A stretch of DNA of 64,000 nt from NCBI RefSeq assembly GCF_028293835.1, contig NZ_JAQGNX010000179.1, forward strand, positions 49,169-113,168, read 5' to 3'. Source of the DNA: Pseudomonas sp. (GTDB taxonomy: Bacteria; Pseudomonadota; Gammaproteobacteria; Pseudomonadales; Pseudomonadaceae). Below, in pieces: positions 4,798 to 28,069 of this stretch; position 1 is the first letter of the stretch; each line of letters starts with the position of its first letter. The notes beneath the pieces were generated by a model. It ran no database searches, had not been told where the DNA came from, and worked only from the letters and a program-made list of their open reading frames with translations. The translations under genes were made by a program, and so were the position numbers.

Positions 4798-4818
4798 TAG
4801 CTGACGATATATCAGTTA
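4798..4818. promoter_or_regulatory. Palindromic operator candidate TAGCTGAC-GATAT-ATCAGTTA
   Basis: Imperfect inverted repeat 95 nt upstream of the OYE start, in the divergent intergenic region; same motif recurs at 17435, 26299, 26423, 28049. Confidence 0.7.
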
Positions 4819-5275
4819 TTTAGGCATTGCCAGTGAAGAATGTGAATCTGCCTGACTGGGCCGGGGCTGACAGGCGTTTAGCCAGAAGGTTAGAGTGGCC
4901 TGTCGACGCATCGGCTAGCTTGAAAAGCATTGGTGGTTTGCGGCGCCATAGCTGGTCAAGGTTTAGCTGCTGGTTTTTGATACCTGAGGACGTAGTCCAA
5001 ATATTATTCTTAAGGACCGCATAACGTCTTGAATAGAAAGAAAATATGTACCCGACAAGAAAAACTTTTCAGAAAGCCTATTGCGAATAGCTGACGGTAT
5101 GTTAGCTTGGCGTCGGAGGTTCTGAAGGGCTGCTATCAACGGCTGAATGATCTGATGTTGTGGTTTAGGATCTTCCTTGCGATAGTGTTTTCTGTTCTTC
5201 ATGCCCAGCGTCTAGCCCCTGTTTTCAGGGGTGAGCCGAAAATAACAAACCGATTTGAATCGGAGAGGCAGGCCA

Positions 5276-6994
5276 GTGAAAACAACAACAATAAGTAACG
5301 CTAGCAGTCGATACGTCAGTTTTAAAAAGCCGTTATGTATGCCGTGCTCTGTTGCATTCCTACTGGGCGTGGTCGGCAGCAATTGTGTGCAGGCAATAGA
5401 AGTCGATACCGGTATTCCCGATGTCAGCGTGCGTTGGGACAACACCTTTCGCTACAACCTCGGAATGCGAATGGAAGGGCAGAACAGCGACTTTTCCAAA
5501 TCGCCGTTTTATGACGATACCGAGCATAAATTCGGGCGTGGCGATGTTGTCACCAACCGGGTCGATATCATCAGTGAGCTCGATGTGGCCTGGAAGCAAG
5601 CGAATGGCTTTCGATTGAGCGCGGCGGGATGGTATGACGACGCCTACAAAGGCAGCGACTCGCCGAATCCAGACCTGACCGGTAGCAGCAACTACATCAA
5701 TAACCACTACAACAGTTACGCCAGCCGTTACATCGCCGGTCCGTCGGGTGAGATTCTCGATGCGTTCGTTTTTACCGGCTTCCAACTGGGTAATGTGGGC
5801 GTCAATATCAAAGCGGGTCAGCACAATGTCTATTGGGGTGAATCGCTTTACTCCATCGGCAACAGTATCGCCTACTCCCAAGGTCCGGTTGACACCATCA
5901 AGGCAGCAACCAGTCCGGGCGCGGAGGCCAAGGAACTGTTCTTGCCGCTGAAGCAGATCTCGACAACGGTTCAGCTCACTGATGAATTGTCATTCGCTGC
6001 GCAATATCTGTTGGACTGGAAACCTTTCCGCCTGGTGCCTGGCGGTACGTACTTCTCGTCGGCCGATGGGGCCCGTTCGGATCTGGGCGCACCGGCAGAT
6101 ATTTTCCAGATTCCAAACGGTCGTGATATCGAACCGGATAGCCATGGTGACTATGGCTTGAACCTACGGTGGAGCCCTTGGTGGCTGGGCGGCACGGCGG
6201 GTGTCTATTACCGCAAGTTTGCTGAAAAACTGCCGTGGAGCTTTACCCAGGTCGGTGTTCAGCAAGTGGCGCCGGGTGTATTTGCCGGGATTCCAAACGC
6301 GATTCGCTTCAACTATGCCCGTGATACCGAGCTGTACGGCTTGAGCCTGACTAAAACCCTGGGCACCGTGAGCGTTGCGAGCGAAGTGTCTTATCGGCGT
6401 AATACAGCGCTGAACTCGGTGGCGGGCTTTACCGTGATCTCAAGCGGCGATGCCGGATATGCGCAAGCCGAAGGTGCCCGAGGTGACAGCCTTCATGCGC
6501 TGGTCAACGGTATCTATCTGTTGCCCAAAACGCCCATCTGGGACGGTGGTACATTTCAGGCGGAGTTGGCTTACAACAAGCTGGAAAACATTACTGAGAA
6601 CGCTGATCGATTCAATGGTCGCGGTCACGGTTGCGTGACGGCGTATAGCAAGAACTGTGCAGATGACCATTCATTAGGCATGCAGATGGGCTTCACTCCG
6701 CAGTGGCCGCAGGCCTTTCCGGGTTGGGACATGTCGATGCCGTTCTCTCTGGCATACGGTATAGATGGCAACAGCCCTACGTTGGGTGGTACTAACGAAG
6801 GCGCGTACAACTATTCGGTGGGCATCAATGGTGTCTGGAAGAACCAACACAACTTTACGTTGGCCTGGATAGACTCGCACGCCGATTATAAAGTCAACCC
6901 GGCCAGCGGCTATGTCACCAGCGATTATACAAATGGCTCGGCTGTACAGAATAACCATGGCTGGCTGTCGTTTACCTACAAGACCACTTATTAA
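5276..6994 (+). CDS. DUF1302 family outer-membrane beta-barrel protein
   Basis: Signal-like N-terminus then VSVRWDNTFRYNLGMR, EILDAFV, GQHNVYWGES, C-terminal WLSFTYKTTY; start GTG 5276 after GGAGAGG is my best guess. Confidence 0.8.
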   Translation: MKTTTISNASSRYVSFKKPLCMPCSVAFLLGVVGSNCVQAIEVDTGIPDVSVRWDNTFRYNLGMRMEGQNSDFSKSPFYDDTEHKFGRGDVVTNRVDIISELDVAWKQANGFRLSAAGWYDDAYKGSDSPNPDLTGSSNYINNHYNSYASRYIAGPSGEILDAFVFTGFQLGNVGVNIKAGQHNVYWGESLYSIGNSIAYSQGPVDTIKAATSPGAEAKELFLPLKQISTTVQLTDELSFAAQYLLDWKPFRLVPGGTYFSSADGARSDLGAPADIFQIPNGRDIEPDSHGDYGLNLRWSPWWLGGTAGVYYRKFAEKLPWSFTQVGVQQVAPGVFAGIPNAIRFNYARDTELYGLSLTKTLGTVSVASEVSYRRNTALNSVAGFTVISSGDAGYAQAEGARGDSLHALVNGIYLLPKTPIWDGGTFQAELAYNKLENITENADRFNGRGHGCVTAYSKNCADDHSLGMQMGFTPQWPQAFPGWDMSMPFSLAYGIDGNSPTLGGTNEGAYNYSVGINGVWKNQHNFTLAWIDSHADYKVNPASGYVTSDYTNGSAVQNNHGWLSFTYKTTY

Positions 6995-7033
6995 AGCTGC
7001 ACCCGTTAGCCTGCCAAACGTGAGGGTTAGTCC

Positions 7034-8413
7034 ATGAATAATAAAAACATCGTAATGTGGGGCGCTGTCAGCCTGCTGTTCGCAAGCCAGGTCATGGCGG
7101 CGCCTACGGACGAAGAGATTAAACAGCTAGGCACTACACTGACACCGCTGGGTGCCGTTAAAGCTGGTAACGCAGACGGCTCGATCCCGCCGTGGACCGG
7201 GGGCATGTGCACCATTCCGCCAGGCTACAAACCCATCATGGGCGACAAAGGTGGTTCGCCTTATGTCGATCCATTTGCCAATGAAAAACCCTTGTTTAGC
7301 ATCACAGCGGCCAACATGGCGCAGTACAAGGACAAGATCGACGATGGCACGCAAGAATTATTCAAGCGTTACCCTGAAAGCTTTCGCGTTGATGTTTACC
7401 CCTCCCATCGGACGGCTTGCTTCCCGCAGTGGGTCTATGACAATACGATTAGTCGAGTGAAAAACCCACAAGTGGTTGGTGCTGCGCCAAGTTTGGCCAA
7501 TGCCCACGCACAATATCCCTTCCCGATTCCCAAAACCGGGTATGAGGCGATGTGGAACTCGAACGTCAAGTATGAGCTGCCCTATAGCGAAGGCACTCAG
7601 GCAGCCTATTTGATTGATACCTCGGGCGGCGTCACGCTGACCGGTGTGCAGAAAATCGAAAACCGAAACTTGTTCTGGGATAACTCCATGGACAAAATCC
7701 CGGACAACCAACCGTATTGGGCATTGATTGCCAGTACCACTGCGCCTGCACAAGCTGTGGGCGTCAAGCAACTGCGCCATTCGTTTCTGGAAGCTCAGGA
7801 TCGCGAGAACATGGCATGGTCCTATATCCCGGGACAGCGCCGGGTCCGACTGGCGCCTGAGTTCAAATACGACACCGTCAGTACCACCAGCGGTGGTGTA
7901 TTACTGTTCGACGAGATCAACGGTTTTGACGGCAAGATGGACAAGTTCGACTTCAAACTCGTCGGTCGGCGCGAAATGTATGTGCCTTACAACGACTATA
8001 AGACCTGGGATGCCGATCCGGTCGCAATCAACACGCCCAAGCACCTGAACCCGGACTACCTCCGTTGGGAATTGCACCGGGTGTGGGTGGTGGAAGCGAC
8101 GCTCAAGCCAGGTGAACGGCATGTACAGAAGGTCAAGCGTTTCTATCTGGACGAGGACAGCTGGAGCATCCTGACCTACGTTTCGTTTGATCAGGCTGGC
8201 AAGGTCCACCATTTGATGTACCAGCCTTCGATCCAACAGTATGAAAAACCGGCTTACCGCAATGGGCAGTACGTGCTCTATGACTTGACCAAGGGTGTTT
8301 ACTCCAATGGCTCGCTCATGGCTGCGCCGAAAATGACCGGCTTCTACAAGGTCGATGCCTACCCGGGCAGCTACTTCTCGCCGGGCTCGCTGGCCGGTTC
8401 CGGAGTACGTTGA
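7034..8413 (+). CDS. DUF1329 family periplasmic protein
   Basis: Signal peptide; LGTTLTPLGAVKAGNADGSIPPWTGG, PFPIPKTGYEAMWN, YIPGQRRVRLAP, WELHRVWVVEATLKPGERH. Confidence 0.88.
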   Translation: MNNKNIVMWGAVSLLFASQVMAAPTDEEIKQLGTTLTPLGAVKAGNADGSIPPWTGGMCTIPPGYKPIMGDKGGSPYVDPFANEKPLFSITAANMAQYKDKIDDGTQELFKRYPESFRVDVYPSHRTACFPQWVYDNTISRVKNPQVVGAAPSLANAHAQYPFPIPKTGYEAMWNSNVKYELPYSEGTQAAYLIDTSGGVTLTGVQKIENRNLFWDNSMDKIPDNQPYWALIASTTAPAQAVGVKQLRHSFLEAQDRENMAWSYIPGQRRVRLAPEFKYDTVSTTSGGVLLFDEINGFDGKMDKFDFKLVGRREMYVPYNDYKTWDADPVAINTPKHLNPDYLRWELHRVWVVEATLKPGERHVQKVKRFYLDEDSWSILTYVSFDQAGKVHHLMYQPSIQQYEKPAYRNGQYVLYDLTKGVYSNGSLMAAPKMTGFYKVDAYPGSYFSPGSLAGSGVR

Positions 8414-8506
8414 CCCCTAAGTCATTGAGCATTTGGGGGGTGTGATGCCCCCTGTTTCACGCTCACTGCGTCGAACTCCCATGAACCGTACTGCTGAGAG
8501 GATGAA

Positions 8507-9574
8507 ATGACGACTGTGGGTTGTAGGTTACTGTTGGCCGCGCTCTGTGCCATGGCCCTGTCGGCTCGGGCTGATGCGCAAACGGGTTTCATGGACCCTC
8601 TGGATCGCCCCGCATCGTCTATCAGTCAGTTGACGAGGGCGCACCTGAACAGTGTGACCACGGCAGGCAAGCGGCTGGTCGCAGTGGGTGCCAGAGGCTT
8701 GATCATGTTCTCCGATGATGCGGGGGCCAACTGGTCCCAGGCGCCTTCTCCCGTTTCGTCGGACTTGCTCGGCGTAAATTTTCCGACACCGGAACAAGGT
8801 TGGGCTGTGGGTCACGAAGGCGTGATCCTGCACACCGCCGATGGCGGCCTAAGCTGGAGCAAACAACTGGATGGTCACGCCGCGAGCGCGTTGCTGACCG
8901 AACATTTTGACGCATTGGCGGCGGCCGGTGATCCCACCGCCGCAGTGTTCCAGGAGGCGGTCAAGCTCAATTATCAAGACGGCCCTGAACAAGCCCTGAT
9001 GGATGTCTGGTTCTCCGATGAGAACAATGGGGTGGCGGTGGGCACCTTCGGTACGCTGTTCGCGACCCACGATGGCGGCCGGCATTGGGAGTCCTGGATG
9101 GAGCGGGCGGACAACCCGGATCTTCTGCATTACATGGCAATTTCCGGCAGCGGCAGTGAGATGTACATCGCCGCAGAGCGCGGTGTGGTGTTCAAACTTG
9201 ATCCCCGCACCCAGCGCTTCATACGACTGGAAACTGGCTACCTGGGTAGTTTTTTCAGCATCAAGGCCACTTCACGGATGATTGTTGCCGCTGGCTTGCG
9301 GGGCAGCGCCTACAAATCCTCGGATGGGGGCGTCACTTGGCAAACCTTGCCTACCGGCATCAACGTCGCGATCAGTGATGTCCAGAGCTTGCCCGATGGT
9401 CGGTTTTTACTGGCGGGCGTCGATGGCAAGGTGGTGATCAGCGATGCCGCTGTACGCGGCTTCTCCCCCATGGCGGTTTCTCGCTTTGGACGATTTACCA
9501 GTCTGGTATGGCTCAATGACGGCAAAGCCGTCAGCGTCGGATTCTCCGGGGTGCGAGAAGTCTCTGCGCAATAG
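8507..9574 (+). CDS. YCF48/BNR-repeat beta-propeller protein
   Basis: Signal peptide; repeated S/T-x-D-x-G-x-x-W boxes (SDDAGANW, TADGGLSW, THDGGRHW, SSDGGVTW). Confidence 0.85.
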   Translation: MTTVGCRLLLAALCAMALSARADAQTGFMDPLDRPASSISQLTRAHLNSVTTAGKRLVAVGARGLIMFSDDAGANWSQAPSPVSSDLLGVNFPTPEQGWAVGHEGVILHTADGGLSWSKQLDGHAASALLTEHFDALAAAGDPTAAVFQEAVKLNYQDGPEQALMDVWFSDENNGVAVGTFGTLFATHDGGRHWESWMERADNPDLLHYMAISGSGSEMYIAAERGVVFKLDPRTQRFIRLETGYLGSFFSIKATSRMIVAAGLRGSAYKSSDGGVTWQTLPTGINVAISDVQSLPDGRFLLAGVDGKVVISDAAVRGFSPMAVSRFGRFTSLVWLNDGKAVSVGFSGVREVSAQ

Positions 9575-9608
9575 CTACCGGACGCTCCCGTCATTTTCAG
9601 AGGCAACT

Positions 9609-12110
9609 ATGGTTTTATTGAAAGCGCTCGACATGCCGGTCATTGCGGACCCTGCCGACTTTGACAAAAACAGCGGCAACTGGCTCGAAAGGCTAGTGTT
9701 CAATCACCGCATCAGTGTGATCTTGCTCTGTGGGGTGTTGACGTTATTCTTCGGCTGGAACGCACTGAAGTTACCGGTCAATACCAGCTTCGAGAAAATG
9801 ATTCCGCAGTCCCATCCCTATATAAAAAATTACCTCGAACACCGTGATGCGCTCCGTGGCATGGGTAACGCAACGCGAGTCGTGGTGGAAAATACTAAGG
9901 GTGACATCTTCGATAAAGACTATTTGCTGACGCTGCAAAAGGTCAACGACGCCGTTTACCTGCTACCCGGCATAGACCAGGGTTGGATGCGCGGGCTGTG
10001 GACCAGCAGCTTGCGTTGGACCGAAGTCACCGAGGAAGGTTATCGGGGCGGCCCCGTCATCCCGGATCGCTGGGACGGTAGCCCAACCTCCATGGACCGC
10101 CTGCGTGAAAACATCAATCGAGCAGGCATCGTTGGCAGTTACGTGGCCAACAATCTGAAGTCGTCGATGATTTTTGTGCCATTGCTCGATCTTAATCCTG
10201 AGACCAGGAAGCCACTGGATTACGCGGTTTTTTCGAGGCAATTAGAGGACAAGGTGCGGTCGCTGGAGACCGACACCATCAAGATCCACATCATTGGGTT
10301 TGCCAAGATCGTTGGCGATTTGATTGATGGCATGTATTCGGTGATGGCGTATTTCGGTTTCTCGGTGCTAATCGCCACTGCGCTGGTGCTGGCCTACACC
10401 CGCTGCCTGCGCAGTACGCTATTGCTGGTGTTCTGCGCCTTACTCGGCGTGGTCTGGTTGCTGGGCTTGCTCAGTGTGCTCGGCTACGTGCTTGATCCGT
10501 ATTCAATCCTGGTACCTTTTCTGATTTTCGCCATCGGTCTGTCCCACGGTGCGCAGAAGATGAACGGGATCATGCAAGACGTGGGGCGAGGCACCCATAA
10601 ATACGTGGCTGCTCGCTACACCTTCCGCCGATTGTTCATGGCGGGGCTGACTGCGCTGCTGGTGAATATCGTTGGTTTTGCAGTGCTGATGATCATTGAT
10701 ATCCCTGTGATTCGCGACATGGCCCTGACCACCAGCCTGGGCGTCGCTATCCTGATTTTCACCAAGCTGTTTTTGATACCGGTGCTGCTGTCCTATTTCG
10801 GCGTGAGCGCTGACGCGGCGCGGCGCAGTGTGCAAACGACGAATCAGATAACGGCCGGACGGAGTCCGATGCAGGCCATCCGCAGTGGCCTGATCCGACT
10901 TACTGAACGGCGTCGTGCCACGATTACCGTTGCGCTCGCCGCCGTGCTGGCCTGCGCAGGGCTTCTGATCGGTCACCACGTGCAGTTTGGGGACCTTAAT
11001 CCGGGCGCGCCGGAGTTGCGGCCGGAATCGCGCTATAACCGCGACGTAGCCTTCGTGACCCAGAATTACGGGCTGTCAACGGACCAGTTTGTGGTCATGC
11101 TCAAAACACCGGCTGGGGAATGCACCCAGTTCTCATCGCTGACCGAAGCGGACCGTTTGAGTGCCCGCCTGCGCGAATTGCCCGGTGTACAGACCACCTT
11201 TTCGCCCGCGGACGGCATTCGTCTAGCCACATCGGGGATGTTTGAGGGCAACCCCAAATGGATGACAATCCCGGTCAATACCAGCACCCGCACCCAAGCC
11301 TTCAACATGTTCGCCACGGACCGGCCGGAACTGGTCGATAGGTTCTGCGTCATCACACCGGTGATTGCTTATCTGGCAGACCACAAGGCGGCGACGCTGG
11401 ACCGCGTAGTGAAAGAGGTCGAAGCCTATGGTGCGGAGTTCAACACCGAATCACGCACGTTCCTGTTGGCCGCCGGCAGCGCTGGTATTGAAGCGACCAC
11501 CAATATTGTGGTCAAACGCAGCTTCTGGACCTTGCATCTGGTGCTCTATGGCGCAGTGGCGTTGCTGTGTTTCATTACCTTCCGCAGCTGGCGTGCGGTG
11601 GTGGTAGCGATTATTCCGTTAATCATCACCTCGATCCTGTGTGAGGCGCTAATGGTGATGCTGAACATCGGGATTAAGGTCGCCACGTTGCCAGTCATCG
11701 CGGTGGGTGTTGGTGTCGGTGTCGATTACGCGCTGTATTTGCTCAGCGTGCAGTTAGGCATGCAGCGGCACGGCATGACCCTGGCCAAGTCTTATGAAGG
11801 CTCGCTTGATTTTGTCGGCCGAATCGTCGGTCTGGTCGGATTGACCATGGCCGCAGGGGTTATTCCGTGGATATGGTCACCCATCAAATTCCAGGCGGAC
11901 ATGGGCATTCTGCTGAGCTTCATGTTCCTGTGGAACATGGTCGGTGCGTTGGTACTAATCCCTGCGCTGTCTTACTTTCTGCTGCGTACACCGGCCGATG
12001 ATGCACCGCCTGAGCAGCGGGACATGGACGCAACCTCAGCGACGAGCCCATCTGAGGAGCCGTTGGGCGAACCTGGCAAAGAAACCATCAAGCAACGAAT
12101 TACTGCCTGA
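9609..12110 (+). CDS. RND superfamily (MMPL-like) transporter
   Basis: Two repeats of TM plus large loop plus TM bundle; GVGVGVDYALY motif; ATG 9609 with GAGG RBS. Confidence 0.88.
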   Translation: MVLLKALDMPVIADPADFDKNSGNWLERLVFNHRISVILLCGVLTLFFGWNALKLPVNTSFEKMIPQSHPYIKNYLEHRDALRGMGNATRVVVENTKGDIFDKDYLLTLQKVNDAVYLLPGIDQGWMRGLWTSSLRWTEVTEEGYRGGPVIPDRWDGSPTSMDRLRENINRAGIVGSYVANNLKSSMIFVPLLDLNPETRKPLDYAVFSRQLEDKVRSLETDTIKIHIIGFAKIVGDLIDGMYSVMAYFGFSVLIATALVLAYTRCLRSTLLLVFCALLGVVWLLGLLSVLGYVLDPYSILVPFLIFAIGLSHGAQKMNGIMQDVGRGTHKYVAARYTFRRLFMAGLTALLVNIVGFAVLMIIDIPVIRDMALTTSLGVAILIFTKLFLIPVLLSYFGVSADAARRSVQTTNQITAGRSPMQAIRSGLIRLTERRRATITVALAAVLACAGLLIGHHVQFGDLNPGAPELRPESRYNRDVAFVTQNYGLSTDQFVVMLKTPAGECTQFSSLTEADRLSARLRELPGVQTTFSPADGIRLATSGMFEGNPKWMTIPVNTSTRTQAFNMFATDRPELVDRFCVITPVIAYLADHKAATLDRVVKEVEAYGAEFNTESRTFLLAAGSAGIEATTNIVVKRSFWTLHLVLYGAVALLCFITFRSWRAVVVAIIPLIITSILCEALMVMLNIGIKVATLPVIAVGVGVGVDYALYLLSVQLGMQRHGMTLAKSYEGSLDFVGRIVGLVGLTMAAGVIPWIWSPIKFQADMGILLSFMFLWNMVGALVLIPALSYFLLRTPADDAPPEQRDMDATSATSPSEEPLGEPGKETIKQRITA

Positions 12111-12189
12111 GGTCCTTGACGCCCGAGACAGAGAATTCTGTCTTGTGGCTTTCTGCACTCGTTTATTAACCTGACGCCGGAGACATCGT

Positions 12190-14409: not shown

Positions 14410-15200
14410 ATCTGGGATTGACTGGCAAAGTCGCCTTGGTCTCAGGTGGCAGTAAAGGTATCGGTCGTAGCTGTTGCGAATTACTGGCCGATGAAGGCTG
14501 CAAGGTCATGGTAGTTGCGCGCGGGGCCGATGCCGTAGAGCAGACCGTGGCCGAGCTGCGTGCGGCGGGCGGCATTGCCAGCGGTGTGTGTGCCGACCTG
14601 ACTCAGCCTGCCGAGGTGCAACGCGCCGTTTCAGCGACCTGCCAGCTTTATGGATCGCCCGACATCGTGATCACCAATGTCCACGGCGGTGAGCCCAGTG
14701 ACTTTTTCACAGGCGATACCGACGTGTTTTTACATGCATTCCAGGCGCAGGTGATGAGTGTGGTGCACTTGGCCAGAGCGACGGTGCCGCACATGCGCGA
14801 ACGGCGTTGGGGGCGCCTGCTGACCATCGGCACTGCGGCGGCGAAGGAGCCAGTTTCTGGCCTGAAGTTGATGGCCGCAACCACCGCCCGCGCGGCAGTG
14901 GTGACCTTGAACAAGTCACTGGCGGATGAGTTTGCCAGCGACGGAATCACCGTCAACACCTTGGCGACGGGCTGGATAGCCACGGCAACCATGCTTGAAG
15001 AAGTAGCGCGCATGGGCGCTGCCCGTGGCCTGTCTGCTGAGGCAATGATGCAGCGATTGACTAAGGCAATTCCCGTGGGACATGCGGGCGATCCGCAGCA
15101 AATCGCATCAATGGCGGTCTACCTATGCTCTGATTTAGCCGGGTATATCACGGGCTGCTTGATTCCGGTCGATGGCGGCGCCCATCGCAGTGCCTGGTAA
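14406..15200 (+). CDS. Short-chain dehydrogenase/reductase, atypical active site
   Basis: ATGA overlap with upstream gene; GGSKGIG cofactor motif; no YxxxK (LMAATTARAA at that position). Confidence 0.82.
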   Translation: MNLGLTGKVALVSGGSKGIGRSCCELLADEGCKVMVVARGADAVEQTVAELRAAGGIASGVCADLTQPAEVQRAVSATCQLYGSPDIVITNVHGGEPSDFFTGDTDVFLHAFQAQVMSVVHLARATVPHMRERRWGRLLTIGTAAAKEPVSGLKLMAATTARAAVVTLNKSLADEFASDGITVNTLATGWIATATMLEEVARMGAARGLSAEAMMQRLTKAIPVGHAGDPQQIASMAVYLCSDLAGYITGCLIPVDGGAHRSAW

Positions 15201-15215
15201 TCGCCTGGGGTGGAA

Positions 15216-17361: not shown

Positions 17362-17434
17362 AAATCCTCCCGCATAGGTTCGCCGTGATACGGCATCGTT
17401 TAAATAGAGGTTGACGGGCGGCAGTATAAATTGA

Positions 17435-17455
17435 AAACTGACATATAGTTAGTTA
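17435..17455. promoter_or_regulatory. Palindromic operator candidate AAACTGAC-ATATA-GTTAGTTA
   Basis: In AT-rich divergent region, 28 nt before the fused dehydrogenase ATG. Confidence 0.72.
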
Positions 17456-17483
17456 ATTTAATAAAAACTGCCTGGAGGGTTCG

Positions 17484-19811: not shown

Positions 19812-19846
19812 CGAGTGAACAAGTCTATGAACATCCGGAGAATCCT

Positions 19847-21034
19847 ATGAGAGAAGCGGTCATCGTTTCCACCGCTCGCACCCCGATCGGGAAAGCCCAT
19901 CGCGGCGCTCTGAACGCGATCAAGTCACCCACGCTCACCGCTCATGCGCTGTTGCATAGTGTGTTGCGCGCCGGCATTGAACCGGCCGAGGTCGAAGACG
20001 TGATTATTGGCGCCGCGATGGGCGCCGGAACTGCAGGACGAAACCTTGCGCGGGCAGCCGCCTTGCGAGCGGGCTTTGGCGTTGGGGTGGCGGGCTCTAC
20101 CGTAGATCGACAATGTGCTTCCGGCCTGATGGCGATTTCTATTGCGGCCAAACAAATCATTGTCGACGGCATGGACATTGTGATTGGCGGTGGGTCGGAA
20201 AACGTCAGTGCGTTGGCACCCGGTTATCTTGAATGGGCGGTCCGTGACAAGGACCCGGCGCTGGTCGAGCGCGTACCTGGCGCTTATATGCCGATGATCG
20301 AAACGGCGGAGTACGTCGCCAGGCACTACGGGATCTCTCGCCAGGCTCAGGATGACTACGCATTGTTGGCCATGCAGCGAGCGGTCGCGGCGCAGTCTCG
20401 AGGCGTGTTCGCTGAGGAAATAGCGCCGTTGGATGTGTCACAGAAAATCGTCGACAAACACACTGACAAGATCAGTTACAAGAACTACCTGTTTTCTGAA
20501 GACGAATGTTTGCGCGCCGGCACCACCGCCGAGGGGTTGGCTGCGCTCAAGCCCGTTATGGAGGGCGGTAGTATTACGGCGGGTAACGCCAGCCAGTTAT
20601 CCGACGGAGCTTCGGCGTGCGTACTGATGGAGGCCAGGGCTGCAGAGCGACGCGGATTACAACCCTTGGGCGTATACCGGGGGTTTATTACCACGGGATG
20701 TGCCCCTGAGGAGATGGGCATAGGTCCGCTGTCAGCCGTACCGAAATTACTCGGTAAACACGGGCTGACCATTGATGATGTTGGCCTCTGGGAGCTGAAT
20801 GAAGCCTTTGCCTGTCAGGCATTGTATTGTCGCGATCAGTTGGGCATTGACCCTGATCGATTCAACGTCAACGGTGGCGGCATTGGACTTGGCCACCCTT
20901 TTGGAATGACCGGCTCACGACTGGTAGGCAGTGCCTTGCTGGAAGGGAAGAGGCGCGGTGTACGGTACGTCGTGGTCACCATGTGTATTGGTGGCGGGAT
21001 GGGCGCGGCGGGGTTGTTCGAGGTTTACGTGTGA
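19847..21034 (+). CDS. Acetyl-CoA C-acyltransferase (thiolase, PimB-like)
   Basis: [17 protein letters not shown]; [28 protein letters not shown] catalytic motifs intact; GGAG RBS. Confidence 0.92.
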
Positions 21035-21091: not shown

Positions 21092-22228
21092 TTATGCAGC
21101 TCTTTCCGCGGCCGCCAGTTGTTCGTAGTGATGCATGCTGCTGCCTAATGCGACGTTGATCAATGTCATGCGTTTGAAGTAATGACCTATAACGTACTCC
21201 TCAGTGACGCCAATCCCGCCGTGCAACTGAATGGCTTGCCCGCAGACAAACTGTCCGCTTCTGCCGATATGCGCTTTGACCGCAGACAGCGCATGGTCAC
21301 GCTCAGCCTCTCCCAGTTCAAGACTGGCCAGCCCCAGATGCAACAGGCTGCGGGACAGTTCCAGTTCAATCAACATTTCGCTCATGCGGTGTTGCAAACT
21401 CTGAAAGCTGCCCAGAACCTGACCAAATTGTTTACGAATCTTGAGGTAGTCCCGGGTAATCCACAGTGATTGCTCCATGATGCCGACCGCCTCTGCCACC
21501 AATCCCACAAGCGCGTGGGCATTGCCTTGGCTAAGGGCTGCAAACCCGTTGCCTACCACGCCCAAAACGTGCGTTGCGGTCACTTCAACATTGCACAGGG
21601 TCAAGTGGCTGCCCCAACGATTGTCGATCAGACGAACGTTACGCTTGCCGACTCCGTGGGTCTTGGCGTCGATAAGAAACAGCGTAATACCTTCGCGATC
21701 ACTGGCCTCGCCAGAGGTACGTGCCGAAACGATGAATAACTCGGCGACGTTGCCGCCGACCACGGCGATTTTTTCCCCATTCAACCGCCAGCGGTTTTCT
21801 CCTGTCGACACGGCTGAAGTGCGGACCGACGCCAGATCTCCTCGGGCAGTGGCTTCGTCGTGGGCGAGTATGGGCAGTAACAAGCCTTCACCCAGCGATT
21901 GCAAAACCGTGCGCGCTTTGGGGTCATTGATAGCCAGTAGCGTTTGTGCTGCCAGCACCGCAACGGCCCAGTACGGCTCGACGCACAACACGCGGCCTAT
22001 CTCTTCCATCACCAAAGCGCTCTCGACAGCCGAGCAATTCATTCCGCCCAGTTCTTCGGGTAACCCCAAGGCGAGCAACCCCAGTTCTGCCATGTGTTGC
22101 CAGTGGCCTGTGTCGAACGCGCCGTTATCAACGGTGGCGCCGCGCCGCTCGAAGGGACAGGTCTCTTGCATAAACCGACGGACACTGTCTTTGAGCATGG
22201 TTTGCTCTTCGTTTAATTGAAAATCCAT
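21092..22228 (-). CDS. Acyl-CoA dehydrogenase, PimD-like beta subunit
   Basis: MDFQLNEEQTML; RKQFGQVLGSFQSLQHRMSEM; AIQLHGGIGVTEEY. Confidence 0.88.
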   Translation of the reverse strand: MDFQLNEEQTMLKDSVRRFMQETCPFERRGATVDNGAFDTGHWQHMAELGLLALGLPEELGGMNCSAVESALVMEEIGRVLCVEPYWAVAVLAAQTLLAINDPKARTVLQSLGEGLLLPILAHDEATARGDLASVRTSAVSTGENRWRLNGEKIAVVGGNVAELFIVSARTSGEASDREGITLFLIDAKTHGVGKRNVRLIDNRWGSHLTLCNVEVTATHVLGVVGNGFAALSQGNAHALVGLVAEAVGIMEQSLWITRDYLKIRKQFGQVLGSFQSLQHRMSEMLIELELSRSLLHLGLASLELGEAERDHALSAVKAHIGRSGQFVCGQAIQLHGGIGVTEEYVIGHYFKRMTLINVALGSSMHHYEQLAAAERAA

Positions 22229-22230
22229 GC

Positions 22231-23430
22231 TCAAAGCTCCAGAAACGAACGGGCAATAATGGTGCGTTGTACTTCGTTGGCTCCGCCGTAAATTGTCGTG
22301 GCCCGACGGTAGAAATAATCGGCCATGATCCCAGGTGCGGTGGCGGGGCCTGGCGGCCAATCCTGTTGCCGCCGAACGTTTCCCAGGGGATCGGTGAAGA
22401 CGTAACAGGCATGGCTGCCAAGTGCTTCGACTTGTAATTCGCCTATTTTTTGTAATAACTCGGAACCACGGATCTTCAGCACGGACCCCACCGGCAGGCG
22501 CGATTGGCCGCCGGCTTTTTCATGCAAAGCGCGCAGGCTTAGCCAGCGCAAGGCCAGTAAATCGGTATCCAGTGTCGCGAGGCGGCTCGCAAAACCCGGT
22601 TGGTCAATCAGTCGTCGGCCATCGCTCTGCACTTTATTGAGCAATGTGCGCAGACGTGAAAGATGAGCGTTGTTACGCGGCCATTCGGCACTGAAGGCGC
22701 GCTCGTTTTCCAACAAGAATTTAGCGTAGGTCCAGCCCATGCCTTCCTCGCCAACCAGGTTAGAGACCGGCACCCGTACATTGTCGAAAAACACCTCATT
22801 GAGGCTGTGGCTTTCGCCAATGTCATAAATCGGGCGGATGGTGACGCCTGGTGCCTGACGGTCCACCAGAATCATCGATATACCGCGCTGGCGCGCTTGT
22901 GGGTCGGTTTTGGCGAGGATAAAAATCATGTCCGCGGTTTCGACGAATGAGGTCCATATCTTCTGCCCGTTGATTACATAGTCATCACCGTCGCGCTCGG
23001 CACGGGTGCTCAGTGAACCCAGGTCCGAGCCCGCATTTGGTTCGGAAAAACCCTGCCCCCAGAAAACGTCACCGCTGAGAATCCGCGGGCCGTACTGACG
23101 CTTCATGGTTTCACTGGCGAACGTCATGATCACCGGGCCGATCATCTTGAAACCCGCCGTGTCCACTGCTGGAGCACCCGCCAGAAATGTCTCTTCGTCG
23201 AAAATAAACTGGCGCACCGGCGACCATCCAGTACCGCCCCAGGACGCAGGCCAATTGGCGCCCGACCAGCCTTGGCTGTGAAGTATTTTGGTCCATTGAC
23301 GGGTGTCTTCGCGCAAGGGATGGTAGCCGCGCCGGTTACGCTCAGCCAAGTCTTGTGGAAGTTTCGCCTTGAGAAAAGCACGGACTTCCTCACGGAAGTG
23401 CTCGTCCTCCTGATCGGGTTTGAAATGCAT
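22231..23430 (-). CDS. Acyl-CoA dehydrogenase, PimC-like alpha subunit
   Basis: WGQGFSEPNAGSDL, LLENER, IYGGANEVQRTII. Confidence 0.9.
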   Translation of the reverse strand: MHFKPDQEDEHFREEVRAFLKAKLPQDLAERNRRGYHPLREDTRQWTKILHSQGWSGANWPASWGGTGWSPVRQFIFDEETFLAGAPAVDTAGFKMIGPVIMTFASETMKRQYGPRILSGDVFWGQGFSEPNAGSDLGSLSTRAERDGDDYVINGQKIWTSFVETADMIFILAKTDPQARQRGISMILVDRQAPGVTIRPIYDIGESHSLNEVFFDNVRVPVSNLVGEEGMGWTYAKFLLENERAFSAEWPRNNAHLSRLRTLLNKVQSDGRRLIDQPGFASRLATLDTDLLALRWLSLRALHEKAGGQSRLPVGSVLKIRGSELLQKIGELQVEALGSHACYVFTDPLGNVRRQQDWPPGPATAPGIMADYFYRRATTIYGGANEVQRTIIARSFLEL

Positions 23431-23480
23431 GAACGAGGTCCTTCGGTGATAAGTGGAGTCGGGCAGGGCCGCAGGGTTGA

Positions 23481-24683
23481 TTAATTAGGTGGCGTATTGA
23501 AAGGTTGGCCCTTGTCCGGTCGATAGTCCTGAGGCAGCCCCAACACCCTCTCAGCCAGTGTGTTGAGAAGTAGCTCATCGGTGCCCCCCGCAATGCGCAA
23601 ACTGGGGTCCAGCCACGCGCTGGCGAAGTCGCTTCTGGGGTGGGCGTCCGGCCCCAGGATTGCACCGCTGGCCCCCAACAAATTCAGAGCAGTCCGACTC
23701 AAGGACTGGCGCGTCCGGCCCAATAACAGTTTCCGAATCGCGCCCTCCGGGCCTGGCGCCTGGCCGTTGGCAAAGGCATCCAGCGCACGACGGTGTATCG
23801 CCCGAAGGCCTTGGCGTTCCACGAAAATATCGGCGATGGTGGCGCGAATTTCGCCGTCCTCCAGGGCCGAATGACCGTTAATGTTGGTGTGGGCTGCCAG
23901 CTCGACGAAACGCTCCAGCGTGGGTCCATAGCCTGATTCATCGGTTACCGCGTAACGCTCGATCATCAGCGTCTCAACGGCAACCTTGAAACCGCCGTTG
24001 ACTTGCCCAAGGCGCTGGTCATCGGGGACAAAGACATCATCAAAAAAGACTTCATTGAGGTCTTTTTCCCCACCCAGTCGGCGGATCGGCACGACCGAAA
24101 CGCCCGGCGACTTCATGTCGAGGAAGAAATAGGTCAAGCCGGCATGCTTGGGCAGGTTGGGATCGGTTCGCGCGACAATCACGCCCCAGTCGGCAATTTG
24201 CGCCCAACTGGTCCAGACTTTTTGTCCGCTCAGGCGCCAGCCGCCTTCAGTCGGAACAGCCTTTAGGCGCAACGACGCCAGGTCAGAACCCGCCGACGGC
24301 TCCGAGAACAATTGGCACCAGATCAACTCACCGCGAACGGTGGGACGGGCCAGACGCTCTGTCCAAAGCGGCGAGGCGTAGCGCAGAAAAATTGGCAATG
24401 GGTTGTTCAGGCTGATACTGAAATAGGCCAGCGGCAGGTCGTAGTGCATCTCCTCTTCACTGAAGACCACTTTTTCCAATTCACTGCCTCCGGCGCCTCC
24501 GACTTCGGTGGGCAAAGTAATGCAGGCATAGCCGTGATCGGCCTTAAGGGCTTGCCAGGCGCGGCCAAGGGCCAAATCGGCTTCCAAGCTCAACTGCTGC
24601 CGTGCTGTACCCGAGTACGGCGGTGCGTTTTCAGCCAGCCAGCATCTGGCGCACTCACGGTATTCTTTGAGAGCGTCGTTCAT
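23481..24683 (-). CDS. Acyl-CoA dehydrogenase, alpha-type subunit
   Basis: WCQLFSEPSAGSDL, GQKVWTS, LMIER, IAGGTDELLLN. Confidence 0.88.
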   Translation of the reverse strand: MNDALKEYRECARCWLAENAPPYSGTARQQLSLEADLALGRAWQALKADHGYACITLPTEVGGAGGSELEKVVFSEEEMHYDLPLAYFSISLNNPLPIFLRYASPLWTERLARPTVRGELIWCQLFSEPSAGSDLASLRLKAVPTEGGWRLSGQKVWTSWAQIADWGVIVARTDPNLPKHAGLTYFFLDMKSPGVSVVPIRRLGGEKDLNEVFFDDVFVPDDQRLGQVNGGFKVAVETLMIERYAVTDESGYGPTLERFVELAAHTNINGHSALEDGEIRATIADIFVERQGLRAIHRRALDAFANGQAPGPEGAIRKLLLGRTRQSLSRTALNLLGASGAILGPDAHPRSDFASAWLDPSLRIAGGTDELLLNTLAERVLGLPQDYRPDKGQPFNTPPN

Positions 24684-24696
24684 TATTGATCCGCCA

Positions 24697-25797
24697 TTAT
24701 TGTGAGTGTGCCGTTTTCAATCCGATGTCGCTTAACAGGCGCTCGCGCCAATAGGGAAGGCTGCCCAATTCCAGGGCCAGCGTCCGCGAGCGACGGTAAT
24801 GGTGGTGAGGCATGGCCTCCCAGGTCACACCCATCCCGCCATGGATGTGCAGGCATTCTTGTGCGGCGTAGTCATAGGCTTTGGTTGCCGCGATCCGCGC
24901 TGCGGATGCCAGTTGTCGTTTTTCCGGCAGGTCTTGGTCCCAGGCATCCAAGGCATCGCTGACGCAACCTCGGGCAACCTCAAGCAGGCAATAGATCTCC
25001 GCGAGTTTGTGCTTGATCCCCTGGAAGCTGCCGATCAACTGGCCGAACGCGCGGCGTTCGCGAGCGTATTTGCACGCCAGATCAAGACTGGCCTGGGCGC
25101 CGCCGACCTGTTCGCAGGCGCATGCCAGGGCGGCGAGGCTGGTGACATTCAAGACCTCATTGACGCTGCCAAGCAGCCTCCCGGGGACGTGTTTAAAGCA
25201 CAGCACTGCTGCCGCCCGGGCGTTATCGAAACTGTTGTGCGGCATACGCTGAACCCCCGGTTGGTGCAGATCGACCAGAAAGAGGGCAATACCCTGTTCG
25301 CTGTGAGCTTGAACCAGTGCCACATCAGCAACGTCGGCAAACGCCGCCAATGCTTTTTCGCCGTCTAGAAACCCGTGGGTACTGACCAGCGATGGGCTGG
25401 TGGACAGGCCTGAGTCAGTAGGGTCAGCAAGCGCCAGGCAGGCAATCTTGCTGCCAAGGGTGAGCGCTTCTATCAGCGGCAGCCATTGTTCTGTGGCGCT
25501 CTGTTGCAACGCATCCGCGACCACCGCGTTAGCCATCAGCGGCAAGGAAGCGGTGACACGCCCGGTTTCTTCGCAGAGCACCCCGAGGCCGCTCCACCCC
25601 AGACCCAAACCGCCGGCCTGTTCAGTCATGCCCACGCTGGGCCAGCCCTGCTCGACGGCATGTCCCCATAAAACATGATCAAAGCTGGCGGGCGCTTCAA
25701 GCAACGACTTCAGGTGCTCAGGCGTGGCTTGATCGTTAAGCAGGCGTTTGGCCTGATCACGAATCGAAGCAAGGATTTCGGCATGCTCTTCTTGCAT
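24697..25797 (-). CDS. Acyl-CoA dehydrogenase, beta-type subunit
   Basis: RRAFGQLIGSFQGIKHKLAE, LHIHGGMGVTWE, HHHYRR. Confidence 0.86.
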   Translation of the reverse strand: MQEEHAEILASIRDQAKRLLNDQATPEHLKSLLEAPASFDHVLWGHAVEQGWPSVGMTEQAGGLGLGWSGLGVLCEETGRVTASLPLMANAVVADALQQSATEQWLPLIEALTLGSKIACLALADPTDSGLSTSPSLVSTHGFLDGEKALAAFADVADVALVQAHSEQGIALFLVDLHQPGVQRMPHNSFDNARAAAVLCFKHVPGRLLGSVNEVLNVTSLAALACACEQVGGAQASLDLACKYARERRAFGQLIGSFQGIKHKLAEIYCLLEVARGCVSDALDAWDQDLPEKRQLASAARIAATKAYDYAAQECLHIHGGMGVTWEAMPHHHYRRSRTLALELGSLPYWRERLLSDIGLKTAHSQ

Positions 25798-25807
25798 TCA
25801 GGAGTTC

Positions 25808-26215
25808 TCAGGCAGGCGTGAATAGGGGGAGGTAGATCTCTTCAATCGCTTCGAACACCACACGAACTCGCTGTCCGATGTGAGTTGAATCGATCGGACA
25901 ACCAACGATATTGGTGGTCAGGTGTAGGCCTTGTTGTTCATCGAGCGACACGACGGCAATGGCGTAAGGCACGGGCTGACCTGGCGCCCATGGCTGGTGA
26001 TTAATGGTCAGTGCTTCGATGGTGCCCCGGCCCGAAACCACCTGTGGTGCAATATTTCGGCTCAGGCATTTCGGGCAAATGATCCCCGGCGGATGCAACC
26101 AGTGCTGGCAATCGGAGCACTGCAAAATCCGCAGTTGTCCGTCATGGCCACTGGTCCAGAAAAATGTGTTGAGGTCGTCCAGTGCAGGTAAAGCGCGTTG
26201 AAAATCGGTGCTCAT
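25808..26215 (-). CDS. DUF35 Zn-ribbon/OB-fold acyl-CoA-binding protein
   Basis: CSDC...HPP...CPKC Zn ribbon; PYAIAVVSLDEQ, LTTNIV, IGQRVRVVF. Confidence 0.88.
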   Translation of the reverse strand: MSTDFQRALPALDDLNTFFWTSGHDGQLRILQCSDCQHWLHPPGIICPKCLSRNIAPQVVSGRGTIEALTINHQPWAPGQPVPYAIAVVSLDEQQGLHLTTNIVGCPIDSTHIGQRVRVVFEAIEEIYLPLFTPA

Positions 26216-26298
26216 AGGGGTCTCCAGCGATGACGGGCGTAACGAGCATGATGCTTCAGCTCATGAAGTGTGTTCCATCATTGTTCGTGCTCGGCAAA

Positions 26299-26319
26299 TA
26301 ACTAACATGTTGTTATTTT
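26299..26319. promoter_or_regulatory. Weaker operator candidate TAACTAAC-ATGTT-GTTATTTT
   Basis: One strong half-site; 84 nt upstream of the DUF35 start on the minus strand. Confidence 0.5.
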
Positions 26320-26422
26320 TAGAGCATCCTTGAGCAAGATGCAATACCCCTGTGTCGAGTTGACGTGAGGATTAACTTCAGCCAGTCATGGACGGTTGTC
26401 GATGTAGGTCATTTTGCTGTAT

Positions 26423-26443
26423 AAGCTGACACAAGGTCAGTTA
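26423..26443. promoter_or_regulatory. Palindromic operator candidate AAGCTGAC-ACAAG-GTCAGTTA
   Basis: 19 nt before the SDR ATG. Confidence 0.72.
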
Positions 26444-26462
26444 TTAACCGCTATACAGGAGA

Positions 26463-27167
26463 ATGTCGATGTCGAACTCACTGGTCGTTGTCACGGGGGC
26501 CGCTGGCGCGCTGGGTCGTGTCGTTGCTCAGGCTTTCTTGCAGCAGGGGCGCCCGGTTTTGTTAATCGATTGCAGTGAGCAGGCCCTGCATTCGGTTTAT
26601 GAGGGGATTGCAGGCGATACGCATTTTCTGGCTGTCGATTTGACGGACGCGGCGGCGACGCAGGCTTCGCTGGCCAACGTATTTCAGGTTAAAGGGCCGG
26701 CAGGTGTGCTGTGCAACATCGCCGGTGGCTTTGCCATGGGCAGCGAGGTGCACGACCCCGATGGTTCGGTCTGGCAGCAAATGATGGACCTGAACGTGGC
26801 GACGGTCCTAAACACCTGCCGCGCCACGGTGCCGGGGATGTTGGCTGCGGGCACCGGTAAAATTATCAATGTTTCGGCCGCCTCGGCTATCAGTGGCAAG
26901 GGGACCATGGGCGCCTATTGCGCTTCGAAAAGTGCTGTGGCGCGACTCACTGAATCCATGGCTCAGGAGTTGCGAGGCCGCGGCATCAATGTCAATGCAG
27001 TAGCCCCTAGCATTATCGACAGCCCGGCAAATCGGGCAGCCATGCCTGAGGTGGATCCGGCACTCTGGGTCTCGCCTCAGCAACTGGCCGACGTCATCGG
27101 CTTCCTGGCCAGCGATGCGGCCAGCGCGTTGCAGGGTGCAGTTATTCCGGTGGTGGGGTTGTCCTGA
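26463..27167 (+). CDS. Classical short-chain dehydrogenase/reductase
   Basis: TGAAGALG, NIAG, YCASK, NAVAPSII; ACAGGAG RBS. Confidence 0.9.
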   Translation: MSMSNSLVVVTGAAGALGRVVAQAFLQQGRPVLLIDCSEQALHSVYEGIAGDTHFLAVDLTDAAATQASLANVFQVKGPAGVLCNIAGGFAMGSEVHDPDGSVWQQMMDLNVATVLNTCRATVPGMLAAGTGKIINVSAASAISGKGTMGAYCASKSAVARLTESMAQELRGRGINVNAVAPSIIDSPANRAAMPEVDPALWVSPQQLADVIGFLASDAASALQGAVIPVVGLS

Positions 27168-27182
27168 CATAGGTCCAGTCCC

Positions 27183-27210
27183 GTCAGGGCGCTTGGTAAA
27201 GCGCCCTGAC
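27183..27210. terminator. Hairpin between convergent SDR and crotonase genes
   Basis: GTCAGGGCGCTT-GGTA-AAGCGCCCTGAC, 12-bp perfect stem. Confidence 0.6.
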
Positions 27211-27245
27211 CTCGGCGTTGAGCTTTCAATGTGGACCTGGAGCGA

Positions 27246-28022
27246 TTATCGTCCTTTCCACTCCGGGGTACGCTTTTCTTGAAAGGCCCGTAGCCCAATG
27301 ATTATGTCTTCTGAGGTCGCAAGGCGCTGACAGGCGACGTCTGTGGCCATGCGTAAATCATCCTCTCCCAACGCCAATGCCTGGCGGGCGATCAACAGGG
27401 TTTCCTGGACGGCAAGCGGTGCGTTAGCGGCGATCTGTCTGGCCAGTTGCAGCGCTGACGCCAGCACTTCGTCATCCTCTACTTGCCGATTGATCAGCCC
27501 CAGCGCCGCTGCACGTTCCGCATCTAGTCCGTTGCCAGTCAACAACAACTCCATGGCCAGGGCCGGAGATATCCGGCGCATCAGCCGATAGACACCGCCT
27601 GCACCGGCGATCAGCCCCCGCTTCACCTCGGGCAAGGTGAAGCGGGCGTTCTTCCCTGCGATGATCATGTCGCAGGCGAGCGCCAATTCGGTACCCCCTC
27701 CATGCGCAGCTCCACGTACCGCTGCGATCCAGGGTTTACGACGGCGGGCATGGATCAGCCCACCCATGCCAGCGCCATTGACCATGAGTTGTTCGCCGGC
27801 ACCGGCCGCGATGTCATCCAAATCAGCCCCGGCACAGAAGGCTACCGGGCCTTCCCCCGTCAAAATCACGACGCGTATGTCGCGAGTCGCCTCGGTGCGT
27901 TCGACCAGCATGGCCAGCGTTCGTGACGCGCTCACATTGATGGCATTGCGTTTATCCGGCCGGTTCAAGGTAATCACGGCGATGCCGGGCTCTGGTTCCT
28001 GGTAAAGCACATCCTCGGTCAT
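27246..28022 (-). CDS. Enoyl-CoA hydratase/isomerase (crotonase)
   Basis: ITLNRPDKRNA, FCAGADL, AHGGGTELALACD, LPEVKRG (both catalytic Glu present). Confidence 0.9.
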   Translation of the reverse strand: MTEDVLYQEPEPGIAVITLNRPDKRNAINVSASRTLAMLVERTEATRDIRVVILTGEGPVAFCAGADLDDIAAGAGEQLMVNGAGMGGLIHARRRKPWIAAVRGAAHGGGTELALACDMIIAGKNARFTLPEVKRGLIAGAGGVYRLMRRISPALAMELLLTGNGLDAERAAALGLINRQVEDDEVLASALQLARQIAANAPLAVQETLLIARQALALGEDDLRMATDVACQRLATSEDIIIGLRAFQEKRTPEWKGR

Positions 28023-28048
28023 ATCTACCTTCCGCGTTCAAGTCTGAA

Positions 28049-28069
28049 TAACTGATGCTATGACAGTTA
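28049..28069. promoter_or_regulatory. Palindromic operator candidate TAACTGAT-GCTAT-GACAGTTA
   Basis: 26 nt upstream of the crotonase ATG, between it and a divergent pseudogene. Confidence 0.68.

Follow-up and report, generated by a model that had tools for sequence, protein, structure and literature searches.

A palindromic operator motif and its likely TetR-type regulator in an accessory genomic island of Pseudomonas

Results

Identification of an island-wide palindromic motif

The stretch of DNA analyzed here (64,000 nucleotides; hereafter, the window) corresponds to C27:49169-113168, where C27 is the contig carrying it in a Pseudomonas sp. genome of 5.7 Mb and 187 contigs. A first-pass annotation had noted a palindrome upstream of the operons in the first 28.5 kb of the window, and had interpreted it as a five-site regulon controlled by one dimeric repressor of the TetR or MarR type encoded elsewhere. 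Our results indicate that this palindrome is almost certainly a genuine operator defining a regulon, with ~21 sites in 16 intergenic regions of an island of ~80 kb and ~66 genes, and that its likely binder is a TetR-like protein encoded within the island, to the left of the window. The five reported sites are real, but the regulon to which they belong is considerably larger than proposed, extending 49 kb further to the left and onto a second contig (C80).

A search of the window with the idealized form of the motif (TAACTGAC-N5-GTCAGTTA, allowing up to three mismatches) returned four matches, at 4798, 17435, 26423 and 28049, as compared with a mean of 0.08 matches in shuffled sequences, none of which (0 of 100) reached four. 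The remaining reported site, at 26299, presents four mismatches to the idealized consensus, yet it scores 26.2 bits with the position weight matrix (PWM) described below, and similar sites are found in relatives at a comparable distance 5' of the TetR gene (loci L019 and L021). Reading of the intergenic DNA also revealed a sixth, weak site that the first-pass annotation had missed, and all six sites are intergenic.

Ordered along the window, with no strand assigned and with distances referred to the nearest start codon, the first of these sites is TATAGCTGACGATATATCAGTTATT (4796-4820; 31.1 bits), located 92 nt 5' of a minus-strand reductase gene of the old yellow enzyme (OYE) type, in the divergent region that the OYE-type reductase operon shares with a DUF1302 operon. 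The weak second site, AATAGCTGACGGTATGTTAGCTTGG (5086-5110, equivalent to C27:54254; 17.9 bits), lies nearer the latter, ~145-167 nt 5' of the DUF1302 (AmeA-like) operon. Next, GAAAACTGACATATAGTTAGTTAAT (17433-17457; 30.6 bits) ends 26 nt before the ATG of a gene for a fused acyl-CoA dehydrogenase, and its start is 71 nt away from an isochorismatase-family gene. The site at 26297-26321 (AATAACTAACATGTTGTTATTTTTA; 26.2 bits) is found 81 nt 5' of a minus-strand operon encoding a ChsH2-type protein with an oligonucleotide/oligosaccharide-binding (OB) fold and four acyl-CoA dehydrogenases, and is followed by ATAAGCTGACACAAGGTCAGTTATT (26421-26445; 28.8 bits), which ends 17 nt before the ATG of a short-chain dehydrogenase/reductase (SDR) gene. 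The right-most site, AATAACTGATGCTATGACAGTTACT (28047-28071; 26.5 bits), lies 24 nt 5' of a minus-strand enoyl-CoA hydratase gene. The five sites originally reported are hence all within 100 nt of an operon start, as had been stated, and Pfam annotation combined with a reading of the intergenic DNA corroborated that every intergenic region of the first 28.5 kb containing an operon start harbors a site. On the right, the regulon ends with the site at 28047-28071, beyond which no PWM match above 15 bits occurs in the window, in agreement with the island boundary placed near 28.5 kb; likewise, the module at 30-44 kb, described as devoid of sites, indeed contains none and carries an IclR gene of its own.

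To define the motif across the genome, we searched for the first-pass consensus with up to three mismatches, obtaining 24 matches, 16 of them inside the island, which represents 1.4% of the genome. Of these island matches, 14 map to C27 (positions 1853-77217) and the other two to the beginning of contig C80; the consensus derived from the five window sites thus picks up 12 further island matches outside the window. A symmetrized PWM built from the 16 island sites yields the consensus ATAACTGACA-N3-TGTCAGTTAT, an extended palindrome of 25 bases with a variable center. The top 18 matches of this matrix in the 5.7-Mb genome (25-36 bits) are all intergenic and all located within C27:1851-77215 or at C80:219 and C80:2623. 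They are followed by matches at C160:55879 (20.8 bits), C27:19580 (20.7 bits) and C27:54254 (17.9 bits), the first of which is located in a coding frame and was taken as a chance match. The scan proposed in the first-pass annotation therefore yields leading matches that are intergenic and confined to the island, rather than equally frequent in coding sequence.

Sites are present at the 5' ends of operons in either orientation, and never at 3' ends. The island has 11 divergent promoter regions, each with at least one site, and in five island regions two sites are found 72-290 bp apart. As a background for these frequencies we used a sample of 400 genomes of the class, which held no other island-bearing genome: the pattern AACTGAC-N5-GTCAGTT, with at most one mismatch, had a maximum of three matches in any of them, versus nine in this genome. 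Occurring far above chance and confined to regulatory regions, these sites are distributed as would be expected of the operators of a repressor regulon.

Conservation of the motif across the Proteobacteria

Using the TetR-like protein as a query against GTDB species representatives, we identified 21 loci, hosted by several Pseudomonas, Stutzerimonas, Metapseudomonas, Aquipseudomonas, Halopseudomonas, a Rhodocyclaceae metagenome-assembled genome (MAG), a Porticoccaceae MAG, Ferrovibrio and unclassified Pseudomonadota. Nearly all of these loci present 4-6 PWM matches per 20 kb. In 100 kb of the islands of Pseudomonas sp. TH41 and P. silvicola, 19-20 sites of at least 18 bits were found apiece. 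The genes of these two islands share 70-76% DNA identity with those of the island reported here, and BLAST alignments break at the intergenic regions. Orthologous operons have hence retained their sites although the intergenic DNA around them has diverged, as would be expected of the operators of a regulon.

Remoter homologs of the regulator (45-60% identity), located through a protein database and a plasmid collection, revealed additional site-bearing loci in Pandoraea, a Spongiibacter-like contig, Fulvimonas soli, Paraburkholderia phymatum and plasmid pAB510b of Azospirillum sp. B510. In these loci the sites are again intergenic, and the regulator gene is part of the same kind of cluster, with acyl-CoA dehydrogenase (ACAD), ChsH2, thiolase and enoyl-CoA hydratase genes and, in some cases, a KshA-like gene. 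Counting sites of at least 20 bits, we obtained 67 in 307 kb of Pseudomonas-type loci (n=15) and 28 in 146 kb of remote loci (n=8), compared to a single one in the 5.6 Mb of this genome outside the island. The motif is therefore conserved in orthologous clusters, and its distribution encompasses the alpha-, beta- and gamma-proteobacteria.

A TetR-like protein is the likely binder of the motif

Pfam annotation bore out the statement that no regulator gene lies within the first 28.5 kb of the window. The search for a regulator to the left of it identified two, encoding a TetR-like and a MarR-like protein 45 kb and 28 kb away, respectively, and no other regulator gene was detected in the island. 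The TetR-like gene (C27:3953-4711; ~45.2 kb left of window position 1) encodes a protein of ~252 amino acids with a Pfam match to PF19352 (TetR_C_38; E-value 2.6e-6), which corresponds to the C-terminal ligand-binding and dimerization domain. A genome scan with PF00440 (TetR_N) was discarded as a means of finding the regulator: it returned 37 TetR genes, none on the island contigs, and was misleading because the helix-turn-helix (HTH) of the island protein is too divergent, so that the gene was detected solely by its TetR_C_38 match. Many of its orthologs (45-83% identity) do match PF00440.

The AlphaFold2 model of the TetR-like protein has a mean predicted local distance difference test (pLDDT) score of 85.5, with 183 residues above 90 and nine helices in the folded core. 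Foldseek returned EthR as the best structural match (E-value 2e-6; template modeling score of 0.84 normalized to the target; 21-23% identity), with a superposition that includes the HTH, and assigned a probability of 1.0 to EthR, PhlH, CecR, BkaR, DesT and FadR. Based on this predicted fold, the island protein is a genuine TetR-family member, with an N-terminal HTH and an all-helical C-terminal domain. In the aligned HTH region, residues T55, V57, S66, A68, F70, Y71, Y73 and F74 are invariant, and the recognition helix (TSSASFYMYF) is nearly invariant among 30 homologs sharing 41-81% identity, which fits the conservation of the operator core. The family formed by this protein and 29 homologs is further distinguished by a nearly invariant N-terminal arm preceding the HTH (NKQGQxLGRKG), and by a variable C-terminal tail of 20-90 residues, modeled with low confidence, that is rich in Lys, Ala and Pro and resembles the DNA-binding tails of histone H1-like proteins. 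Neither trait is usual among TetR proteins, and both could provide additional contacts with DNA.

The genomic context of the TetR gene points in the same direction. The best site in the genome (36.4 bits) lies in its divergent promoter region, and a weaker conserved site is found ~100-130 bp 5' of the gene. Across 25 homologous loci, the TetR ortholog presents a site within ~560 bp upstream in 19 (at least 12.7 bits, and at least 15 bits in 18 of them). Moreover, all of the loci examined have the TetR ortholog inside a cluster of the kind described above, and every motif-bearing cluster examined contains one. Some genomes carry more than one TetR-like gene: MAG G076 has two TetR-like loci, one with no PWM site in 15 kb (L023) and another with five (L024), and genome G017 (L006 and L007) harbors a TetR-like paralog with 35% identity.

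Several observations weigh against this assignment or against parts of its support. The matrix was trained on the sites of this genome, which makes their PWM scores partly circular; the 12 additional island sites found with the window-derived consensus, and the conservation of the motif in other genomes, are independent of these scores. In 6 of the 25 homologous loci no site was scored just 5' of the TetR gene, and in at least one of these the gene is an internal member of an operon with a site at its first gene. In this genome, the HTH of the TetR-like protein falls below the PF00440 threshold. TetR and MarR genes occur together in 16 of 20 related genomes (18 of 20 if the weak paralogs in the Porticoccaceae MAG G080 are counted), so the assignment rests on a few genomes lacking MarR, some of which are incomplete MAGs. 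Lastly, a strict scan for sigma-70 consensus promoters in four window regions revealed none over the sites, leaving the distance to the start codon as the single basis for a repressor geometry. Even so, we consider it probable, from comparative evidence, that the TetR-like protein binds the island-wide palindrome, in keeping with the single dimeric repressor postulated by the first-pass annotation.

A distinct palindrome is associated with the MarR-like gene

The alternative that the MarR-like protein (C27:20496-21044; 182 amino acids; Pfam MarR_2) binds the island-wide palindrome, with the TetR-like protein binding something else, appears unlikely. It is a reasonable candidate on several counts. 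Inverted repeats with a 5-N5-5 architecture occur in MarR-family operators, such as that of MexR (GTTGA-N5-TCAAC), and the core of the island motif (CTGAC-N5-GTCAG) is arranged in this way. The marR operon is preceded by the second-best site in the genome (35.3 bits), a site is located directly 5' of marR in Halopseudomonas, Pseudomonas sp. WN033 and Pandoraea, and a MarR gene accompanies the motif in most related genomes, as noted above. Because of this co-occurrence, the presence or absence of MarR and TetR among close relatives does not discriminate between the two proteins, and we relied instead on the remote loci and on the DNA next to marR.

Analysis of the latter revealed a second palindrome, TGACAACATGTTGTCA (TGACAAC-N2-GTTGTCA, perfect), at C27:20489-20504, ~28.7 kb left of window position 1 and ~25 bp 5' of the marR start. 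This palindrome, distinct from the island-wide motif, is preserved immediately 5' of marR in 17 of 17 aligned loci whereas the surrounding DNA is not (loci L029-L044), and it occurs only once in this genome at zero mismatches. In Pandoraea, the marR-type palindrome precedes the ACAD-APH operon, made up of the genes that follow marR in Pseudomonas, and it is absent from loci without MarR. A private palindrome that moves with the ACAD-APH operon suggests that MarR has its own operator and a local target. TGACAAC-N2-GTTGTCA is thus probably the operator of MarR itself, and MarR probably constitutes a second regulatory tier over the marR-APH-ACAD sub-operon, which is itself downstream of a TetR-type site.

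Conversely, the island-wide motif persists where MarR is missing. Fulvimonas soli (G081) and MAG G076 have no MarR ortholog, and the Paraburkholderia (G082) and Porticoccaceae (G080) genomes have only paralogs of 32-36% identity located elsewhere, yet each of these four genomes carries 2-7 stringent motif matches. In G076, G081 and G082 the matches are concentrated on the contig that holds TetR, and in G080, a fragmented MAG, they are scattered among several small contigs. A motif-bearing 30-kb locus of Azospirillum also lacks a MarR gene. Furthermore, in P. silvicola and UBA5706 no island-type site is found within 2 kb 5' of marR, yet the site upstream of TetR is kept. The persistence of the motif in genomes without MarR, the separate palindrome of MarR and the site at the TetR gene all favor the TetR-like protein as the binder.

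It is less likely still that both regulators recognize the island-wide site, whether competitively or cooperatively. The two palindromes do have TGACA/TGTCA arms in common, separated by N3 in the island site and by N6 in the marR-proximal one, and in locus L039 the PWM assigns 13.4 bits to the marR-proximal palindrome; however, the additional 3 bp between its arms turn the half-sites towards another face of the helix, palindromes of the marR-proximal type occur once per genome, and the island motif is present in genomes without MarR. Least probable of all is that the binder is encoded elsewhere on the chromosome, beyond the island, or that no transcription factor site is involved and the motif represents a repeated promoter element or mobile repeat: although the sites are AT-rich like promoters, they are symmetric palindromes with a variable center found only at operon 5' ends, without the GC-richness of repetitive extragenic palindromic elements, and they travel with an accessory island (1 of 36 genomes of the genus) across three proteobacterial classes, so that the binder must travel as well.

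Operator position and proposed mechanism

Under the assignment to the TetR-like protein, each of the ~21 operators would be bound by one or two dimers of this repressor. A distance of 12 bp separates the centers of the conserved half-sites, and the conserved stretch covers 23-25 bp, compatible either with the binding of two dimers or with that of a single dimer aided by the N-terminal NKQGQxLGRKG arm. Most operators are located 17-95 nt 5' of a start codon, where the bound repressor would block RNA polymerase. In particular, three window sites end 17-26 nt before start codons with a good ribosome-binding site, a spacing that leaves no room for an activator site centered at -41 or further upstream. 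This position suggests a roadblock or a promoter-occluding repressor, as is usual for TetR proteins. Candidate -35 and -10 elements selected by hand matched only ~8 of 12 consensus positions and were not relied on.

The ~66 genes of the island would consequently be predicted to remain silent until a ligand, either the substrate or a CoA-thioester intermediate, frees the repressor. The acyl-CoA response proposed in the first-pass annotation is a guess. By analogy with KstR, KstR2, FadR and DesT, the ligand could be a CoA thioester; EdcR and AtuR, in turn, respond to free substrates (PMC8700777; bioRxiv 10.1101/2025.09.24.678253).

Operons of the predicted regulon and gene content of the island

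Within the window, the left-most operon of the predicted regulon (260-4703, minus strand) encodes, in its right part, a flavoprotein of the OYE/2,4-dienoyl-CoA-reductase type and two acyl-CoA dehydrogenases, and runs on leftwards past the window with genes for an acyl-CoA ligase, a KshA-like Rieske oxygenase and a fused acyl-CoA dehydrogenase. Divergently from it, the operon at 5255-16757 (plus strand) comprises an AmeABCD-like cassette (DUF1302, DUF1329, BNR and an HAE3-type resistance-nodulation-division [RND] protein), a two-domain family III CoA-transferase, an SDR and an acyl-CoA ligase. The cassette spans window positions 5255-12110 and shares its composition with AmeABCD of Castellaniella defragrans, a four-part HAE3 RND system and proposed exporter encoded in a monoterpene-metabolism island (PMC6394551).

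The isochorismatase-family hydrolase gene (16747-17361, minus strand) is followed by genes for a fused two-module acyl-CoA dehydrogenase and a thiolase (17484-21034, plus strand). Next lies the operon for the ChsH2-type zinc-ribbon/OB-fold protein and, after it, four acyl-CoA dehydrogenase genes (21092-26215, minus strand); this operon is also preceded by sites in Pandoraea, Fulvimonas, the Spongiibacter-like contig and Azospirillum. The short-chain dehydrogenase gene (26463-27167, plus strand) and the enoyl-CoA hydratase gene (27246-28022, minus strand), the last gene of the island on its right side, complete the set. Directly to the right of the last operator, an open reading frame (ORF) of 142 amino acids (28123-28551, minus strand) has no Pfam match, and around it the G+C content dips to 0.54 (window 28-30 kb); this ORF may be spurious, or may represent junction DNA at the right island boundary.

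Outside the window, the island comprises the left flank on C80 and C27:1-77.2 kb, that is, the 49 kb preceding the window plus the window itself up to 28071. From the outside inwards, C80 carries uvrC, pgsA, tRNA-Gly(GCC), a major facilitator superfamily (MFS) gene, a ferredoxin reductase gene with a site and, at the contig end, an enoyl-CoA hydratase gene with a site. The tRNA-Gly(GCC)/pgsA/uvrC left junction (C80:4887-4962 and 5027-7461) lies at a classical integration hot spot for Pseudomonas genomic islands. An ortholog of the regulator was found in only 1 of 36 sampled Pseudomonas genomes, identifying the island as accessory.

The island encodes at least five acyl-CoA ligases, ~15 acyl-CoA dehydrogenases (two of them fused two-module forms), nine enoyl-CoA hydratases, several MaoC/MFE-2 hydratases, more than 10 SDRs, SCP2-type thiolases with a ChsH2-type OB-fold protein, and family III CoA-transferases, together with two Amidohydro_2 proteins, an epoxide hydrolase, alpha/beta hydrolases, thioesterases and an Fe-alcohol dehydrogenase. 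Its KshA-like oxygenase (Rieske and KshA_C domains) maps to C27:46849-47883 (minus strand), ~1.3 kb left of the window, and the ferredoxin-reductase-type flavoprotein in the same regulon to C80:1258-2547 (minus strand). We saw no genes for KstD, HsaC/TesB-type proteins or other ring-cleavage enzymes in the island, and the substrate therefore need not be a steroid. An ORF of 341 amino acids without Pfam match (C27:24103-25128, minus strand) was dismissed as a shadow ORF, since two SDR genes occupy the plus strand there.

Transport and sensing functions are represented by two MFS transporters, a methyl-accepting chemotaxis protein and the AmeABCD-type cassette. The genes for an MFS_3 transporter and the chemotaxis protein form one unit (C27:14516-18167, plus strand) behind sites at C27:14355 and 14427, which suggests that chemotaxis towards the substrate is co-regulated with its breakdown.

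Discussion

The operator map presented here sets the edges of the island independently of annotation, at tRNA-Gly/pgsA/uvrC on the left and at window position 28071 on the right. It ties ~66 genes, including those for transport and chemotaxis, to one signal, and leaves the IclR/UbiD module (30-44 kb) outside the regulon. Since the pair formed by regulator and operator recurs in three classes, the motif can be used to find and delimit the pathway in other genomes. A reporter combining the TetR gene with an operator-bearing promoter in a host devoid of the island would provide a route to the substrate, and possibly a biosensor.

A broader interpretation, which we advance tentatively, is that the TetR-like protein may be the master switch of a widespread proteobacterial pathway of ~80 kb and 66 genes for the degradation of a bulky lipid acid, either branched or polycyclic (such as a terpenoid, a naphthenic-type acid or a steroid-like compound). 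In such a scheme it would be a counterpart of KstR and the head of a two-tier cascade from TetR to MarR, and the pathway would have its own chemoreceptor and AmeABCD-type transporter. If this were the case, the operator map would delimit the whole pathway, and a TetR/operator reporter would reveal its substrate.

Searches of open-access papers found no description of the motif or the regulator. The words of the motif retrieved only microRNA-223 sequences, and the literature on regulators of naphthenic-acid and steroid metabolism yielded AtuR, a MarR and EdcR, all with different operators. EdcR of Caenibius tardaugens (PMC8700777) and AtuR of Pseudomonas (bioRxiv 10.1101/2025.09.24.678253) are TetR repressors encoded in the clusters that they control, with palindromic operators that overlap several promoters. 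They resemble the island system in having the TetR repressor within the cluster and a weaker operator at its own gene. Their operators, however, are different (TnnCnnTACnAnTnGTAnnGnnA for EdcR and TACAAACCAAGCGCTTGCTTGGTA for AtuR), and their regulons encompass 2-4 promoters, as opposed to ~16 regulatory regions here.

EthR of Mycobacterium tuberculosis, the closest solved structure, was also among the best matches in a PDB sequence search. EthR controls a single divergent pair (ethA/ethR) from one long operator, on which several of its dimers assemble cooperatively, whereas the island presents many discrete 25-bp palindromes over 80 kb. Furthermore, the conserved NKQGQxLGRKG arm and the Lys/Ala/Pro-rich C-terminal tail belong to the island family and set it apart from EthR.

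The closest parallel is provided by KstR and KstR2, which govern the cholesterol regulon of mycobacteria and Rhodococcus. There, too, one TetR repressor acts through a short palindromic operator on many operons of a large catabolic set, and the regulator gene itself bears a site. Several enzyme families are shared as well, namely FadD-type ligases, paired acyl-CoA dehydrogenases, ChsH2-type OB-fold proteins, SCP2-type thiolases, hydratases and a KshA-type oxygenase. In contrast, the operator sequence is different and longer in the island (23-25 bp, versus ~14 bp for the KstR motif), the host is proteobacterial, and no KstR chain appeared in the PDB sequence search (E-values up to 1) or among the best 50 fold matches. 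Both KstR and KstR2 are responsive to intermediates of their pathway in the form of CoA thioesters (PMC8700777, discussion). The island system is thus an analog of KstR and not a member of its family. As an operator-repressor switch it is of a conventional kind, and it is notable for its size, its spread over three classes and the handle that it offers on a large pathway; with the TetR-like protein as its repressor, it would rank among the larger TetR regulons, comparable to that of KstR.

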